The notes under the pieces were generated by a model. That model searched no databases, was not told where the DNA came from, and worked only from the letters and a program-made list of their open reading frames with translations. From the NCBI RefSeq assembly GCF_035935935.1, contig NZ_DASYWO010000004.1:209787-273786 (forward strand): a stretch of 64,000 nucleotides of DNA. The letters run 5' to 3'. Below, in pieces: positions 21,190-29,074 of this stretch; position 1 is the first letter of the stretch, and every line of letters starts with the position of its first letter. Position numbers and translations under genes: made by a program. The DNA comes from Brevundimonas sp. (GTDB lineage: Bacteria > Pseudomonadota > Alphaproteobacteria > Caulobacterales > Caulobacteraceae).

Positions 21190-23266
<2,077 letters not shown>

Positions 23267-23277
23267 CGAGGGCCAGC

Positions 23278-23441
23278 TTGACAACCACAGGTGCGCTGTC
23301 CAAGCTTAGCCTATGTGCGAGGTGCGCTAGCCAGCGTCGGGAAAATCACTTTGCAGGCCTGCAGCGAGATTAGCGGGTCGCCCTTTCGCAAAAGAAGCCC
23401 TGACTTGCCGACGCTGGTGCCTCCACATTGGGGGCTTGAGA
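23278..23441 (+). ncRNA. candidate structured leader / RT-associated non-coding RNA
   Basis: The non-coding gap between thiC and the RT has a TTGACA hexamer at 23278-23283. AGGTGCGCT repeats directly at 23289-23297 and 23320-23328. A perfect 10-bp inverted repeat, CCAGCGTCGG (23331-23340) and CCGACGCTGG (23408-23417), encloses 67 nt that includes the palindrome TGCAGGCCTGCA (23352-23363). Function is inferred, not shown. Confidence 0.3.
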
Positions 23442-25010
23442 ATGCAAGAACTCATAGAAGAAGCGCTTATCCGTAAGGCGAGATCGGCACTACGTCGGCA
23501 TCACGCGGGAATAGCGACGAGCCGAAAGTACGCCTCCAAGTATTCCAAGCGGACCGGCCAGGCTCCCGGCGCTCCCCGCATTACAGACCCGAGTGCTTGG
23601 GGCCTGCATCCCCACTTCGATCCAAAATACTGCATCAAGCACTCGCGTTTCTTGAGTCGCACGATCTGGCGCAAAATTCAGGCTGGGGAGTATGAACCAA
23701 CCCCCGCTGTCCAATACGAAATTGAAAAGCCGGGCGGAGGCGCTCGCGTCATCATGGCGTTCTCCATTCCAGACGCTGCTGTTGCAAATGTCGTCCATCG
23801 CGCCGCTACGCGAAGAAACATCAATATTCTTTCGAGCAACAGCTTTGCTTACCGTCCAGACAAGTCCGTATTTGATGCTATCATAAACCTCAAGCGCTCC
23901 GTTACTGGGAGTAAAGTTTATGTCGTCCAGTACGACTTTTCGAAGTTCTTCGATACTATCGATCAGGACTACATCTCGAAAATCATATCGGATCGGCGCA
24001 AATTTATCCTGTCCAACGCGGAGCGCACCGTCGCAAAGGCGTTCTTGCGTCACCGCTTTGCTCGCGTAGCAGATTACCCCGGCGGAACGTTTGAACAGCG
24101 AAGCGCGGGCGTTCCTCAAGGCAGCTCGATGTCCTTGTTCTTGTCAAACGCCACTGGCCACGCCCTCGACCTTTCACTGGAACAAATGAACGGGTCGTTT
24201 GTCCGTTTCGCGGATGACGTCGTCGCCGTCACTCAAACGTTCACTGATGCATTGCGTGTGGCCGAAGAGTTCCGCGCGCACTGCGCCGCGGCAGGCCTGC
24301 GGATCAACCGGGAAAAATCTCCCGGCATCCGCCTGTTAGGCGGAAGCAGTGAGCTTGAGAAACGCATCATGGCAATAGACGATGACGATATTGCCGACCT
24401 TAAAACAATTGATCATATCGACTATCTAGGACACCGAATCTGCCACGATAGGATTGAACTCCCTGACAAATCACTGCGGCGGATCAAGAAACGGATTTCA
24501 TCCATAGTCCACAAACACCTCTTTCTTTACACGAGAGGCCCACACGGCATCATGGGTCAAAACAGGATTGGCGCGGATTTCTTCGATTGGGATTTCGTCA
24601 CCTGCTTGAACGAGATCAGGAAATACATCTATGGCGGTCTCGGCGAGCGCCAGATCCAGCAGTTCCTGCTTCACAACCAGAAGCCACCTGGAATACGAGG
24701 GCTGATGGGCTTCATGCCCCTACTCACGAACCGTAGGCAGCTTGAGCAACTGGATGGCTGGCTTCTGAACATGCTGGTCCGTGCTCAGCGAGAGAGAGCC
24801 CGAGTAGCGACTGCTCATGGGTATCCGCTCCAACGACTCACCAGATCGCAGATCGTTGACGGTTCTTGGTATACATTTGGCGCAATCGCACAGGACTCTG
24901 CGGCCCCCAGTTTCGTGCGCGCTTGGCGCGCTGCACGGAAGTTTTATCTTAGATACGGCCTAATGGGGATCGAACCGCCTGCTTACTACTCGATGATCGA
25001 CTACCAGTAG
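23442..25010 (+). CDS. stand-alone reverse transcriptase (group-II-like/UG-DRT-like, unclassified)
   Basis: RT motifs occur in order: EIEKPGGGARVIMAFSIPDAAVANVV (1), YRPDKS (2), DFSKFFDTI (3), GVPQGSSMSLFLSN (4), FVRFADDVV (5, nt 24207-24218 = FADD), LRINREKS (6), IDYLGHRI (7). A ~190-aa helical C-terminal extension follows. GGGGG lies 8 nt upstream of ATG 23442. Sampled G+C is 43-50%, against ~65% in thiC. Confidence 0.9.
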   Translation: MQELIEEALIRKARSALRRHHAGIATSRKYASKYSKRTGQAPGAPRITDPSAWGLHPHFDPKYCIKHSRFLSRTIWRKIQAGEYEPTPAVQYEIEKPGGGARVIMAFSIPDAAVANVVHRAATRRNINILSSNSFAYRPDKSVFDAIINLKRSVTGSKVYVVQYDFSKFFDTIDQDYISKIISDRRKFILSNAERTVAKAFLRHRFARVADYPGGTFEQRSAGVPQGSSMSLFLSNATGHALDLSLEQMNGSFVRFADDVVAVTQTFTDALRVAEEFRAHCAAAGLRINREKSPGIRLLGGSSELEKRIMAIDDDDIADLKTIDHIDYLGHRICHDRIELPDKSLRRIKKRISSIVHKHLFLYTRGPHGIMGQNRIGADFFDWDFVTCLNEIRKYIYGGLGERQIQQFLLHNQKPPGIRGLMGFMPLLTNRRQLEQLDGWLLNMLVRAQRERARVATAHGYPLQRLTRSQIVDGSWYTFGAIAQDSAAPSFVRAWRAARKFYLRYGLMGIEPPAYYSMIDYQ

Positions 25011-25025
25011 CGGCAGTGCAGGAGC

Positions 25026-25235
25026 TCAGCGGCGCTGGAACGCCTTTCTCACCGCCGACCTCGCCATATCGACGGATTGTTTTCGGACCGAAGCTCGGAT
25101 TTCGGACATGGGTCCGAACGCTTCGCCGCAGTTCGAACAGGACGCCTGATCATCGTCGTCGACCGAGAGACTGGTCGGCTGATCGCACGCCGTGCACCGG
25201 AACGTGGCTGTGATTTCTCCGAGAGGTTTTGTCAT
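25026..25235 (-). CDS. small zinc-ribbon protein (69 aa)
   Basis: MTKPLGEITATFRCTACDQPTSLSVDDDDQASCSNCGEAFGP... with a CxxC-N16-CxxC pattern and a basic C-terminus. AGGAG (complement of 25244-25248) lies 8 nt upstream of the ATG. Convergent with the RT, with a 15-bp gap. Confidence 0.55.
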   Translation of the reverse strand: MTKPLGEITATFRCTACDQPTSLSVDDDDQASCSNCGEAFGPMSEIRASVRKQSVDMARSAVRKAFQRR

Positions 25236-25325
25236 TCGACTCGCTCCTGCTGAGATTCATCACACCACCGCTCGGGGCGATGTTCAACCTTTGTTCTGCA
25301 AAATTGGTATTAGGGCGCGACGCCC

Positions 25326-26015
25326 TCACCCCTCCCCTGCCATCCCCCGCAACGCCTCCTCGAACACCGCCGCCGGCTGGCCGCCGCTGATCAGCCACTT
25401 CCCCTCCACCACCACGGCGGGCACGCCGGTGATGCCGCGGGCGCGCCACAGGGCTTCTTCGGCGCGCACGTCGGCGGCGTACAGGTCGTCGGCCAGGACC
25501 TCGACGGCCCTGGCCCGGTCCAGCCCCGCCGCCGCGGCCGCGTCGGCCAGGACCTCGGGGTCGGTCAGGCGGCGCCCCTCGGTGAAGTGGGCGCGGAACA
25601 GGGCCTCCTTCAGCGCCCTCTGAGCCTCCGGCCCCACCGTCCCGGCCCACCACAGTAGCCGGTGGGCGTCGAAGGTGTTCCAGATGCGGCTGTCCTCGCC
25701 CATCCGCATCTGAAACCCGGGCCAGGCCTCGGCCGCGCGTTCGGTGATCATGGCGCGGTTGGCCGCCGACTGCTGCGGCGTCGATCCGTATTTGCGGCCG
25801 ACATGCTCGACGATGTTCTCGCCCTCCGGCGCCATCTGCGGGTTCAGCTCGAACGGGCGGAAGGTGATCTCGGCCCCGATCCCCTCGGCCTTCAGCCGCG
25901 CCAGCGCCGCCTCCAGCCCGCCCAGCCCCACCACGCACCACGGGCAGACCACGTCCGAGACGAAGTCGATCTTCAGGGTGCGGGCGGCGGGGGCGGGGGG
26001 CGCGGCGTCGGTCAT
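25326..26015 (-). CDS. DsbA family oxidoreductase (FrnE-like)
   Basis: DVVCPWCVVG thioredoxin-fold CxxC motif. 229 aa. Confidence 0.85.
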   Translation of the reverse strand: MTDAAPPAPAARTLKIDFVSDVVCPWCVVGLGGLEAALARLKAEGIGAEITFRPFELNPQMAPEGENIVEHVGRKYGSTPQQSAANRAMITERAAEAWPGFQMRMGEDSRIWNTFDAHRLLWWAGTVGPEAQRALKEALFRAHFTEGRRLTDPEVLADAAAAAGLDRARAVEVLADDLYAADVRAEEALWRARGITGVPAVVVEGKWLISGGQPAAVFEEALRGMAGEG

Positions 26016-26042
26016 GGCGGACAGATGGGGGCAGGCGACGGC

Positions 26043-26441
26043 TCAGGAAAGCTCCGCCCGCAGCCGCGCCTCCAGCGCCGCGCGGTCTTTCGTCTCGCAT
26101 TCCCAGACCGTGACCACCTTCAGCCCCCTGGCCGTCAACGCCGCCTCCACCCGCGCGTCGCGCGCCTGATTGCGCGCGAACTTGGCGGCCCAGTGCTCCG
26201 CGTTGTGCACCGGGGTGGTGGTCCGCCTGCAGCCGTGGCGATGCCAGAAGCAGCCGTGGACCAGCACGGCCCACCCCTGCGTCCGGTTGGCGAAGTCCGG
26301 CGTGCCCGGCAGGGCGCGCACGTGCTTGCGGTACTTCACCCCGATCGCGCGCAGCGCCTCGGCCGTGCGCGTCTCCGGCGTGGTGCCGGTCGAGCGCACG
26401 CGGCTCATGGTGCGGCTGGTCTGGGCGTTCAGCGGCTGCAT
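26043..26441 (-). CDS. vsr: very short patch repair endonuclease
   Basis: SRTMSRVRSTGTTPE...LPGTPDFA...VLVHGCFWHRH...W..KF..N..RD: classic Vsr motifs. 132 aa. Confidence 0.85.
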   Translation of the reverse strand: MQPLNAQTSRTMSRVRSTGTTPETRTAEALRAIGVKYRKHVRALPGTPDFANRTQGWAVLVHGCFWHRHGCRRTTTPVHNAEHWAAKFARNQARDARVEAALTARGLKVVTVWECETKDRAALEARLRAELS

Positions 26442-26482
26442 CGGAAGGCTGAGCGATTCCGGAAATGGTGCGTTCCGCCCTC

Positions 26483-29074
26483 ATGGCGAAGGGCGAACTG
26501 AAGACCTATCAGGCCAAGCGGCGCTTCGACGAGACGCCGGAGCCGAAGGGAAAGAAGGGCAGGGCGGGCAAGGCCGGCGGGTCCTATCTGATCCAGCGCC
26601 ACGCGGCCACGCGCCTGCACTGGGACTTCCGCATCGAGGTCGACGGAGTGCTGAAATCCTGGGCCGTGACCAAGGCCCCCTCCCGCGACCCCGCGGTCAA
26701 GCGGCTGGCGGTGGAGGTCGAGGATCATCCGCTGGACTATGGCGGGTTCGAGGGGACCATCCCGTCGGGCAACTACGGCGCCGGCACGGTCCAGATGTGG
26801 GACCGCGGCACGTGGGAACCCCAGCACCCGGAGACCCTGTCGGACGACTGGGCGCGCGGCTCCATCAAGATGACCCTGTCGGGCGAGCGCCTGCAGGGCG
26901 GCTGGGCCCTGGTCCGGCTGAAGAGCGATCGGGGAAAACCGTCCAAACGGGCGAACTGGCTGCTGATCAAGGAGAAGGACGAGCATGCCGTGCCGGGCGA
27001 GGGCGACGCCAATCTGGAGATCGACGCCAGCGTGACCACCGGCCGCTCGCTGGCCGAGATCGCGGAGGGGAAGAAGAAGTGGACCTCGTCGAAGCCCGTG
27101 GCCCGGAAGGCTCCGAAGACGCCGGAGCCGAAGGCGCGCGAGGCGAAGCTGGGCAAGCCCCCCGCCTTCGTCCCGATCCAGCTCTGCAAGGTGGCCGACC
27201 ACCCGCCGTCCGGCGCCGGCTGGGCGCACGAGATCAAGTTCGACGGCTACCGCGTGCAGGTCTCGACCGGCGGCGGCCAGGCAAGGGTCTACACCCGCCG
27301 CGGCCACGACTGGTCGGCGAAGTTTCCGGAACTGGCCGCCGACGCCGCGTCCTGGCCCGACGGCATCGTGGACGGCGAGGTCTGCGCCCTGGACGCCGAC
27401 CACATGCCCGACTTCTCGGCCCTGCAGGCCGCCATCGGCGACGGGCGGACGGCGGGTCTGGTCTTCTTCGCCTTCGACCTGCTGGCCGAGGGGACCGAGG
27501 ACCTGCGCAAACTGGCCCTTTCGCACCGCAAGGCGCGGCTTCAGGCCCATCTGGACCGCGTGCCGAAGGCGGCCGGCAAGCGCGTCCGCTACGTCGACCA
27601 TTTCGCCACCACCGGTCAGGCCGTGCTGGACAGCGCCTGCCGCATGGATCTGGAAGGCGTCATCTCCAAGAAGCTGGACGCGCCCTACGCCGCGGGCCGG
27701 TCGGGCGCCTGGCTGAAGTCCAAGTGCCGCGGTCGCGACGAGGTGGTGATCGGCGGCTGGTCGTCCGAGGGCGGCACGCGCTTCCGCTCCCTGCTGGTCG
27801 GCGTGCGCGAGGCGGGCGGCCTGCGCTCGCTGGGCCGGGTCGGCACCGGCTACGCCCAGCCCCTGCTCAAGACCCTGCTGCCGCCGCTCAAGGCCGCCGC
27901 TTCGGACACCAGCCCCTTCGCCGGCAAGGGGGCGCCGCGGGGCGGCCGCGACGTCCACTGGGTGAAGCCGGTGCTGGTCGCCGAAATCGAACACGGGGGC
28001 TACACCGAGAGCGGCACCCTGCGTCATGCCGCCTACAAGGGCCTGCGCGAGGACAAGGCCGCCGCCGAGGTGACCGAGCGGCCGCAGGCGCCCACGCCCG
28101 CCGGGAAGTCAGGAAAACCTGACAGGGTCGCCGCCGCCCTGCACGTGCCCGGCGAGCCCGCGCCCGGCGGAAAAAGGGGCAAGCTGATCGTCGCCGGCGT
28201 GTCGATCTCCAACCCCGACAAGATCCTGTGGCCCGCCGTGGACGACCGCCCGGCGATCACCAAGGGCGAGCTGGTCCGCTATTACGAAATGGCCGTCGAC
28301 CGCATCCTGCCGCACGTCGCCGACCGCCCCGTCTCCATCATCCGCGCGCCCGACGGCATCGCCGGCCAGAAATTCTTCCAGCGCCACGCCATGCCCGGCT
28401 CCAACCCCCGGCTGAAGCTGATGGACGTGAAGGAGCGCGCGCCCTACGTCGCCGTGTCGGACGTCGGGGGTCTGGTCGCCATCGGCCAGTCCGGCGGGCT
28501 GGAGCTGCATCCCTGGGGCTGCGCCCCTGACGATCCGGAGACGCCGGAGCAGATCACCTTCGACCTCGACCCCGACGAGGGCCTCGACTTCGCCGACGTC
28601 ATCGCCGCCGCGAAGGTGATGAAGAAGGAGCTCGAGGCGCTGGGCCTCAACCCCTTCGTCAAGACCACGGGGGGCAAGGGCCTGCACGTCGTCGTGCCGA
28701 TCCGGACCGACGCCCGCAGCCGCATCGAATGGGATCAGTGCAAGGCCTTCGCCAAGGAGGTCTGCGAGCGCGTCCGCAGGGACCAGCCCGACCGCTTCAC
28801 CACCACCATCGCCAAGAAGGCGCGAGGCGGGAAGATCTTCCTCGACTACCTGCGCAACGGCCGCATGGCGACCGCCGTCGCCCCCTGGTCGCCCCGCGCG
28901 CGGCCGGGCGCGGGCGTCGCCTTCCCGCTGTCGTGGGGGCAGGTCAAATCCGGCCTGGACCCGCGCGCCTTCACCCTCCACGACGCCGCCGCCCTCCTCA
29001 AGAAACCCGACCCCTGGCCCGACTTCCGCGCGGGCGCGGTCAGCCTCAGGCCGATCCTGAAGAAGGTGCTCTAG
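26483..29074 (+). CDS. ligD: DNA ligase D (phosphoesterase-ligase-polymerase)
   Basis: N-terminal PE domain (YLIQRHAATRLHWDFRIE), ligase adenylation motif EIKFDGYR, and a C-terminal LigD polymerase/primase domain. Start is either 26465 or 26483. Confidence 0.9.
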   Translation: MAKGELKTYQAKRRFDETPEPKGKKGRAGKAGGSYLIQRHAATRLHWDFRIEVDGVLKSWAVTKAPSRDPAVKRLAVEVEDHPLDYGGFEGTIPSGNYGAGTVQMWDRGTWEPQHPETLSDDWARGSIKMTLSGERLQGGWALVRLKSDRGKPSKRANWLLIKEKDEHAVPGEGDANLEIDASVTTGRSLAEIAEGKKKWTSSKPVARKAPKTPEPKAREAKLGKPPAFVPIQLCKVADHPPSGAGWAHEIKFDGYRVQVSTGGGQARVYTRRGHDWSAKFPELAADAASWPDGIVDGEVCALDADHMPDFSALQAAIGDGRTAGLVFFAFDLLAEGTEDLRKLALSHRKARLQAHLDRVPKAAGKRVRYVDHFATTGQAVLDSACRMDLEGVISKKLDAPYAAGRSGAWLKSKCRGRDEVVIGGWSSEGGTRFRSLLVGVREAGGLRSLGRVGTGYAQPLLKTLLPPLKAAASDTSPFAGKGAPRGGRDVHWVKPVLVAEIEHGGYTESGTLRHAAYKGLREDKAAAEVTERPQAPTPAGKSGKPDRVAAALHVPGEPAPGGKRGKLIVAGVSISNPDKILWPAVDDRPAITKGELVRYYEMAVDRILPHVADRPVSIIRAPDGIAGQKFFQRHAMPGSNPRLKLMDVKERAPYVAVSDVGGLVAIGQSGGLELHPWGCAPDDPETPEQITFDLDPDEGLDFADVIAAAKVMKKELEALGLNPFVKTTGGKGLHVVVPIRTDARSRIEWDQCKAFAKEVCERVRRDQPDRFTTTIAKKARGGKIFLDYLRNGRMATAVAPWSPRARPGAGVAFPLSWGQVKSGLDPRAFTLHDAAALLKKPDPWPDFRAGAVSLRPILKKVL

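Follow-up and report, generated by a model that had tools for sequence, protein, structure and literature searches.

The thiC-dsbA slot and its low-GC cargo

In a metagenome-assembled genome of Brevundimonas sp., the genes thiC and dsbA enclose a 2.06-kb gap, from stop codon to stop codon, that forms an islet of low GC content with a single intact reverse transcriptase (RT) gene. The RT gene is preceded by a structured non-coding RNA (ncRNA) and followed by a small open reading frame (ORF) for a zinc-ribbon protein. The locus lies on contig NZ_DASYWO010000004.1 (positions 209,787 to 273,786, forward strand), and this stretch of 64,000 nt, referred to as the window, provides all coordinates given below; unless stated otherwise, features are encoded on its forward (+) strand. 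The RT was deposited merely as a "reverse transcriptase domain-containing protein", and profile, sequence and fold comparisons assign it to the DRT9/UG28 family of antiphage RTs. The islet (23267-25325) has a GC content of 0.553, compared to 0.698 for the whole window, and in a profile calculated per 300 nt the values of 0.70-0.75 in thiC and dsbA drop to 0.49-0.59 between approximately 23200 and 25300.

The islet is contained in a variable cargo slot that reaches from the thiC stop to the dsbA stop (23267-25330, no strand assigned). In two Brevundimonas genomes with flanks 95% identical to those of the window (L066 and L067), sequence similarity ends at the thiC stop (23266-23273) and returns at ~25331, past the dsbA stop, with a different low-GC cargo in between (L066:5691-7759; L067:5763-8169). 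In the slot, one of these sister genomes encodes an ATPase with a match to the defence candidate HEC-01A (8.9e-156; AAA ATPase type), and the other has three genes, one of them for a DUF5131 protein with a match to PDC-M41B/M30B (~1e-105). All three cargoes, DRT9, the HEC-01A type and the DUF5131 set, have a GC content of 0.55-0.58. Association with defence islands is a trait of DRT9 systems, and it is seen here in the HEC-01A and PDC-M41/M30 candidates that fill the same slot in sister genomes. In more distant relatives (flanks ~76-81% identical), the same RT is found in the same thiC-dsbA slot, indicating that the DRT9 occupant is old or travels together with its flanks. No integrase and no flanking repeats were detected at the slot, and a repeat search found neither direct nor inverted repeats at the islet boundaries. 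In Brevundimonas, the gap between thiC and dsbA serves as a defence hotspot devoid of integrases, the contents of which are probably swapped via recombination in the flanking core genes. A first-pass annotation of this DNA, made by a model from the sequence alone, had described a sharp composition break between the two stop codons, a compositionally foreign RT at the thiC-dsbA junction and the lack of an integrase or other mobility gene; the GC profile, the loss and return of similarity at the slot ends in the sister genomes and the gene content of the islet agree with all three.

Identification of the RT as a member of DRT9/UG28

The RT gene (522 aa) has two possible start codons, TTG at 23436 and ATG at 23442, and ends at 25010. 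As homologues start with MQELIEEA, the ATG is the RT start, giving a gene at 23442-25010. Pfam RVT_1 covers residues 94-332, leaving extensions of ~95 aa at the N-terminus and ~190 aa at the C-terminus. In PADLOC, the Drt9 profile (PDLC03766) matches over its full length (E = 1.5e-153, 510 bits; positions 1-486 of the 488 in the profile aligned to residues 1-517), far ahead of a generic RT profile as runner-up (111 bits), RT_UG17 (DRT10; 68 bits) and Drt2 (63 bits). A phmmer search against the PDB placed the cryogenic electron microscopy entries of DRT9 (9ioa, 9iob, 9nlv, 9nlx, 9vku and 9vma) on top (E = 1e-60, aligned residues 3-507). An AlphaFold2 model built on 53 homologues (mean predicted local distance difference test score 86.4, predicted template modelling score 0.78) features a long N-terminal helix (residues 2-38) and a disordered C-terminal tail (515-522). 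The six best Foldseek matches of this model in the PDB are all DRT9 chains, with template modelling (TM) scores of 0.80-0.88 over ~520 columns, and are separated by a wide margin from the next hit, a group II intron RT (0.53), and from G2L4 (0.56), the RT of a diversity-generating retroelement (DGR; 0.44) and DRT2 (0.42). Because the full-length profile, the PDB sequence match and the predicted fold agree, the RT is placed in DRT9/UG28 and not in a new RT class. UG28/DRT9 was named by Mestre et al. and shown to defend Escherichia coli against the phages T2 and T5 (PMC9226505).

Other RT classes match far less well. A group II intron RT or maturase was rejected since the TIGR04416 score of 124 bits is far from the required 300 bits, no Rfam intron model matches, and the next gene leaves 15 nt downstream of the stop. 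For retrons, the best NCBIfam model reaches 46.6 bits (cut-off 235) and no Rfam retron RNA is present, and a DGR was discarded given the fold comparison above and the lack of any direct repeat longer than 17 nt in 23000-25600, that is, of a pair resembling template and variable repeats. The NCBIfam Drt2/3 models likewise remain far under their cut-offs. DRT10/UG17 was rejected on its profile score relative to Drt9 and because tblastn found no SLATT gene, an occasional partner of DRT9 as well, in the window. The first-pass annotation had correctly delimited the RT ORF with its two extensions, had located the catalytic motif at 24207-24218, had excluded group II introns, retrons and DGRs, and had suspected a defence-type RT of the UG/DRT type. 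Classification of the RT core by profile hidden Markov models, which it had proposed, returned DRT9/UG28, and its description of the enzyme as unassignable or part of a novel RT system has to be abandoned in view of the profile, PDB and fold matches.

The residues expected of a functional DRT9 enzyme are conserved. The catalytic FADD motif (F256-D259, 24207-24218), which takes the place of YADD 243-246 of the solved enzyme in the alignment to 9ioa, is invariant in the 53 homologues, as are K96, R102 and R138, which align to K98, R104 and R140 of EcoDRT9, described as "lock" residues (PMC12489045). R447 aligns to R420, by which DRT9 anchors the stem next to its template (bioRxiv 10.64898/2026.06.29.735271). 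The C-terminal tail YYSMIDYQ (24984-25007), which lies in the disordered part of the model, contains the candidate priming tyrosines Y515, Y516 and Y521. Y515 is invariant and Y516 at least 90% conserved among the homologues; in addition, the D-Y-Q of the protein end (PPAYYSMIDYQ) parallels the D-Y-E of reference DRT9, which ends in NYDYE and is primed on Y496/Y498, so that Y521 occupies position -2 like Y498. At the sequence level, the RT possesses the conserved tail tyrosines that serve as protein primers in DRT9. Compared with a 94%-identical homologue (L061), the ratio of non-synonymous to synonymous substitution rates (dN/dS) of the RT gene is 0.02 with dS near saturation, and the gene is under strong purifying selection.

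No DRT9-like relative spanning more than 58% of the RT was found in a phage database. Contigs classed as viral in IMG/VR (L074-L079) encode distant RT relatives with 34-44% identity, and the window's own RT subclade has no member among the IMG/VR viral contigs.

The upstream ncRNA

The region ahead of the RT gene was compared across 57 genomic relatives, metagenomic contigs with closer relatives, plasmid loci from the reference side of the family, and the SenDRT9 locus together with two other gammaproteobacterial loci. Within the window's subclade (RTs 48-94% identical to the window RT; hosts including Brevundimonas, Sphingomonas, Parvibaculum and Caulobacteraceae), this leader is strongly conserved. 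The predicted ncRNA core spans 23313-23418, its 5' end being placed at 23313 because conservation sets in there and the spacing to the putative promoter fits. A TTGACA motif (23278-23283) is the probable -35 box of a joint ncRNA/RT promoter, since 12 of 13 subclade loci have it at a fixed distance from the RNA element that follows, mostly with a -10-like box ~17 nt downstream. A generic scan of the window for sigma-70 promoters and terminators did not call this promoter and found no terminator after the ncRNA.

The core contains three helices. P1 (23315-23327) is a 5' hairpin (GUGCG-AGG-UGCGC) with compensatory changes in three of five pairs. It is followed by the 5' strand of P2 (23330-23340, GCCAGCGUCGG), a long-range closing helix that is completed by its 3' strand (23408-23418, CCGACGCUGGU), also stands out as inverted repeat I8 and shows compensatory changes in seven of 11 pairs. 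P3 (23358-23377, CCUGC...GCGGG) is a variable internal hairpin (four of five pairs compensatory). P1 and P2 were obtained with RNAalifold and P3 was added to them, and covariation was counted on an alignment of 18 sequences. In this alignment, 92.5% of the cells are paired, compared to 31-48% when the partner strand is slid by one to three columns; 14 of the 21 pairs changed on both sides, and none of 500 shuffles reached the observed score. An additional helix between UUUGC (23350-54) and GCAAA (23388-92) was rejected after inspection of alignment A2 by eye, as its 5' side varies without compensation.

A covariance model of this structure (Model R1) recognises one site in the 64-kb window (23310-23422, + strand, 111.9 bits) and also recovers a relative outside the training set (93.8 bits). 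Among more distant clades it reaches L029 alone (E = 0.02), so that homology to these clades and to the reference systems rests on shared architecture. This architecture is common to all of the more than 50 DRT9-like loci and the true SenDRT9 locus, as revealed by an architecture scan: a 5' hairpin, the 5' strand of the closing helix, an AAUACC-like joiner, one or more internal stem-loops, a CU(U/G)AC box, a short tail, the 3' strand of the closing helix and the RT start. Rfam 15 contains no family matching the islet at E <= 1, and the single-sequence fold of the leader has a z-score of -1.0, a value that carries no information at such a GC content. Based on covariation and the covariance model, which support the structured upstream region noticed in the first-pass annotation, this region is identified as the ncRNA partner of the RT.

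Between the closing helix and the RT start, a linker (23420-23441) can form a small hairpin (CCUCCAC/GGGGG), the G-rich arm of which is the likely ribosome-binding site. This hairpin is not a conserved RNA element; it is present in many relatives, variable, and missing in some of them (e.g. L047). By sequestering the probable ribosome-binding site, it may dampen translation of the RT.

The template site departs from canonical DRT9

In DRT9, an RT and its upstream ncRNA assemble into a hexamer that is partly held together by RNA, and DNA synthesis is primed on Y496/Y498 of the C-terminal tail (PMC12483538; PMC12489045). Four uridines (U4) in an irregular loop of the 188-nt ncRNA with six stem-loops template kilobase-long poly-dA, resulting in abortive infection (PMC12483538; PMC12489045). 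These uridines correspond to U123-126 in SenDRT9 and U124-127 in EcoDRT9. The U tract has been called universally conserved in DRT9 (PMC12483538; PMC12632851), and the UG28 ncRNA was described as unusually uniform (PMC9226505).

At the homologous site, the window RNA has CCCUGAC-UU-G (23398-23407), directly abutting the 3' strand of P2. This site consists of the template-loop box CCCUGACU and the tail U23406-G23407, and is homologous by position to CUUAC-UUUU-ACUU of SenDRT9. All 18 aligned sequences share the box without change, and its position relative to the closing helix is the same in all DRT9-like loci and in the reference loci L080-L082. The Salmonella, Pseudomonas and Vibrio loci show box and tail as AACUUAC-UUUU-ACUU, matching the published template position, and the Bacillus and Hymenobacter loci likewise carry U4 at the template site. 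When the RTs are arranged in a neighbour-joining tree, U4 occurs on the reference side only, and the tails of the alphaproteobacterial superclade are shorter and variable. The deviation of the ncRNA spans the whole alphaproteobacterial clade, for which a single scan yielded 57 loci at species level.

A second candidate template site is the single strand between P2 and P3 (J2/3; 23341-23357, GAAAAUCAC-UUU-GCAGG). Its 3' part, AUCAC-UUU-GCAGG (23345-23357), combines a UYAC motif with 8 nt up to P3, which equals the spacing of the canonical template loop. Within J2/3, the U, A, C, U and G are invariant, and the middle positions vary (UUU, CUU, UCU or UAU).

We found no paper on a DRT9 clade lacking the U tract, and in a part of the published table of 438 homologues, none of 12 alphaproteobacterial name stems occurs. 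The locus belongs to a known family and has an RNA variant not described before; its DNA product is uncertain.

Proposed mode of action and nature of the DNA product

We interpret the islet as a two-part antiphage module of the DRT9 family (UG28, Class 2 UG/Abi) that consists of ncRNA and RT and is carried as hotspot cargo, with a probability of roughly 0.8. This interpretation combines the family membership, the covarying ncRNA, the conservation of functional residues, the purifying selection and the hotspot context described above. By analogy with published work on DRT9, the enzyme would oligomerise, be protein-primed, copy its template iteratively and cause abortive infection. A single promoter with the -35 box at 23278 would give rise to an RT message with the ncRNA as its leader, and the RT may bind this RNA via its N-terminal helix, thumb and C-terminal domains. 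A tail tyrosine (Y515 or Y516, possibly Y521) would then prime DNA synthesis, in which the RT makes repeated copies of a very short single-stranded template located between two anchored ncRNA helices. The predicted product is a long, protein-linked, repetitive single-stranded DNA, the accumulation of which upon phage infection would lead to cell arrest.

Several features of the RNA and one of the protein weigh against such a reading. The U4 template is lacking at the homologous site, which has UU in the window and UC, UA or UCA after the invariant ACU in sister loci. Deletion of a single U from the SenDRT9 template abolishes defence (PMC12483538). Elsewhere in the RNA, a U4 run occurs in one of 19 subclade sequences, at a non-conserved site, and two of the 19 are devoid of any run of three. 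The conserved AC of the box is separated from the closing helix by 3 nt, compared to 8 nt in the reference (GAC-UU-G-[helix] versus UAC-UUUU-ACUU-[helix]), so that the template geometry must differ. At ~105 nt and three helices, the ncRNA is also much smaller than the canonical RNA, whose six stem-loops include the oligomer contacts SL4 and SL5 and which ends in a terminator hairpin (PMC12489045); counterparts of the stem-loops forming the dimer and tetramer contacts and of the terminator hairpin were not found in the window ncRNA, and a 3' hairpin is variable or absent. Furthermore, Y25, which in the solved DRT9 stacks on U121 of the CUUAC box, is replaced by G23, and the box has a G at the corresponding position. 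The two substitutions could constitute a matched change, but this is anecdotal.

Given the two-part module, poly-dA produced by slippage on U23405-U23406 is the best single guess for its product, at slightly less than even odds, and another product has to be seriously considered. We tentatively propose, with somewhat lower confidence, that the alphaproteobacterial DRT9 systems form a functional subtype of their own, with a minimal three-helix ncRNA, a template other than U4 and a non-canonical product or template geometry. Its product would be dictated by the CCCUGACU-UG or the UCAC-UUUG loop and consist of short tandem repeats or of an A-rich copolymer; alternatively, it would be poly-dA made from a template of one or two nucleotides with a different geometry.

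A rival reading within the same family is that the ncRNA templates a DNA other than poly-dA, for example, as in DRT10 or telomerase, a heteropolymer of short tandem repeats, copied from the invariant CU-GA-CU (A-B-A') in the CCCUGACU box or from UYAC-YNU-G in J2/3. The absence of U4 from the homologous site, its lack of conservation anywhere else in the RNA and the fact that the invariant part of the loop is CCCUGACU and not a U run are consistent with this. Also, the alphaproteobacterial tails (UCU, UAU, UUA and others) vary like the template loops of DRT10 (PMC12632851), and Class 2 UG RTs copy any short template between anchored stems, with the product changing when the template is swapped (bioRxiv 10.64898/2026.06.29.735271). 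However, the CUNAC box is also kept in canonical DRT9 (as CUUAC) and is not the template there, and therefore more likely represents a boundary or protein-contact element; for the same reason, the A-B-A' reading of CU-GA-CU has a low probability. As U23405 is invariant and followed by another U in the window's lineage, slippage synthesis of poly-dA is still feasible, and DRT10 depends on a SLATT effector that the window does not encode. A non-poly-dA product is a somewhat unlikely alternative, though it is the strongest of those considered here.

A lineage-specific zinc-ribbon gene

Downstream of the RT gene, on the opposite strand, a 69-aa protein with a CxxC...CxxC zinc ribbon is encoded (25026-25235, - strand), an ORF annotated by neither PGAP nor JGI. 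The two genes converge, with 15 nt between the RT stop and the stop of the zinc-ribbon ORF, the same spacing as given in the first-pass annotation. Between the window and L061, the ORF accumulated 34 synonymous and nine non-synonymous differences (dN/dS 0.03), and is a real gene under strong purifying selection. Comparisons of the protein with Pfam, NCBIfam and PADLOC gave sub-threshold matches only, and among 5.8 billion proteins, homologues form two clusters only, both from the window's lineage.

This gene could be a required partner or effector of the RT in a three-part system, and its location next to the RT inside the same low-GC islet, the selection acting on it and its four cysteines would fit such a role. 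The comparison with relatives argues otherwise. In L062-L064, where an 89%-identical RT occupies the same slot and the ncRNA boxes are identical, the whole 314-bp zinc-ribbon segment is missing and the dsbA stop follows ~20 nt past the RT stop. A homologue is also lacking in ~70 other DRT9-like loci. Moreover, being convergent with the RT gene, the ORF is not co-transcribed with it, and canonical DRT9 requires RT and ncRNA only (PMC9226505, PMC12489045). A three-part system is therefore improbable, and the zinc-ribbon gene lies outside the conserved unit as a lineage-specific passenger or at most an optional accessory. Of the "tiny accessory gene" that had been proposed, the gene itself proved real, but it does not belong to the conserved components of the system.

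Loss of function and DNA repair as alternative explanations

The missing U4 might also reflect a decaying or domesticated remnant that has lost DNA synthesis, given that the window RNA is short of two or more template uridines in a family where loss of one is sufficient to kill SenDRT9 defence (PMC12483538). This is very improbable: the RT ORF is intact and evolves at a dN/dS of 0.02, if at saturated dS, its catalytic and RNA-contact residues are invariant in the 53 homologues, covariation is seen in the ncRNA helices and the loop box stays unchanged between lineages whose RTs are only ~50% identical, and dozens of species have the variant architecture in common. Least credible of all is a G2L-type or housekeeping RT acting in DNA repair together with vsr and ligD, as had also been considered in the first-pass annotation, since, although both genes lie within 1.5 kb and the group II RT/maturase model is the best non-defence NCBIfam match, that match falls far under its cut-off, G2L4 (9d4s; sequence E = 3e-5) and the group II RT trail far behind DRT9 (TM 0.84-0.88) in the fold comparison, Rfam detects no intron RNA domains, and vsr-ligD-dsbA is conserved in sister genomes without the RT.

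Relation to characterised defence RTs

Of the characterised systems, DRT9/UG28 (SenDRT9 and EcoDRT9, PDB entries as listed above) resembles the window locus in its full-length profile, sequence and fold including both extensions, in the single RT gene with the ncRNA immediately upstream on the same strand, in the RNA order of 5' hairpin, long-range closing helix and CUNAC box just before the helix 3' strand, and in the xADD motif, the lock residues, the RNA-anchor arginine, the tyrosines of the flexible tail and the defence-island context. In addition to the differences in template, RNA size, tail and residue 23, the window RT is ~28-35% identical to the solved enzyme, has FADD in place of YADD, and originates from a high-GC alphaproteobacterium, whereas the characterised systems are gammaproteobacterial. 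At the SenDRT9 locus itself (L080:20-1240, Salmonella CP067413), the deposited RT has 532 aa and starts 33 codons early, so that its coding sequence overruns the 3' part of the ncRNA, and a phage-type integrase is located immediately upstream, unlike in the integrase-free Brevundimonas slot.

DRT10/UG17 is likewise a Class 2 UG RT, its ncRNA resembles the one of DRT9, it is primed from a C-terminal protein residue, and its template loops are poorly conserved in sequence, like those across the alphaproteobacterial DRT9-like clade, but it differs by its much lower profile score (68 vs 510 bits), its need for a SLATT effector and its organisation as an RT dimer on a pseudo-symmetric RNA. DRT2/UG2, the sister group of DRT9, also relies on the RT as its only protein and on a structured upstream ncRNA that is copied iteratively, but uses a ~120-nt template, rolling-circle synthesis and priming from the RNA 3' end, acts as a monomer and matches the window RT poorly in profile (63 bits) and fold (TM 0.42). 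AbiK and Abi-P2 (Class 1 UG/Abi) share tyrosine-primed, protein-linked DNA synthesis and are abortive-infection RTs, yet their synthesis is untemplated, they have no ncRNA and possess a C-terminal alpha-repeat domain, and they were not detected as close relatives here. Among the loci fetched, a Thioclava plasmid (NZ_CP149928; L060:1405-3535) is the sole SLATT-associated member, with an alphaproteobacterial DRT9-like RT gene that is followed by an overlapping annotated SLATT gene and has a leader with CCUUACUUUG near the start codon.

Implications for DRT9 and for the hotspot

DRT9 is among the few defence RTs with a solved mechanism, and this mechanism builds on a U4 template called universal and intolerant of a one-base deletion. 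The window and a large alphaproteobacterial clade retain enzyme, priming tail and RNA scaffold, but their template tract is replaced and the stem-loops of the canonical hexamer have been dropped. The purifying selection on these sequences suggests that the alphaproteobacterial systems are active. If so, either their poly-dA derives from a much shorter template, which would place limits on how slippage synthesis can be modelled, or they synthesise a different repetitive DNA, and the concept of a "programmable template between two anchors", known from engineered chimeras of DRT10, would extend to variation occurring naturally within DRT9. A distinct functional subtype, if real, would overturn the rule of the universally conserved poly-U template and imply that product identity evolves within one DRT family. 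The ~105-nt RNA of an active system would also be the smallest natural scaffold of its kind and of interest for the engineering of DNA-writing enzymes. Furthermore, the thiC-dsbA hotspot in Brevundimonas could be mined for additional defence systems.

Neighbouring genes and minor features of the window

A vsr gene for a very-short-patch endonuclease (26043-26441, - strand) is divergent from ligD (26465-29074, + strand), an arrangement that is kept in the sister genomes. A second small variable slot lies between vsr and dsbA (26016-26049). It is empty in the window, and contains one to three small ORFs (170, 148 and 152 aa) with no assigned function and no PADLOC matches in the sister genomes (L066:3399-4950; L067:4453-4965). 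Ahead of thiC, a thiamine pyrophosphate riboswitch (RF00059, 66 bits; 21195-21301, + strand) is the sole Rfam match in the window. The riboswitch reaches into the beginning of the longest thiC ORF (start 21269), indicating that the true thiC start is located further downstream; gene callers give a thiC length of 636 aa, not 665.

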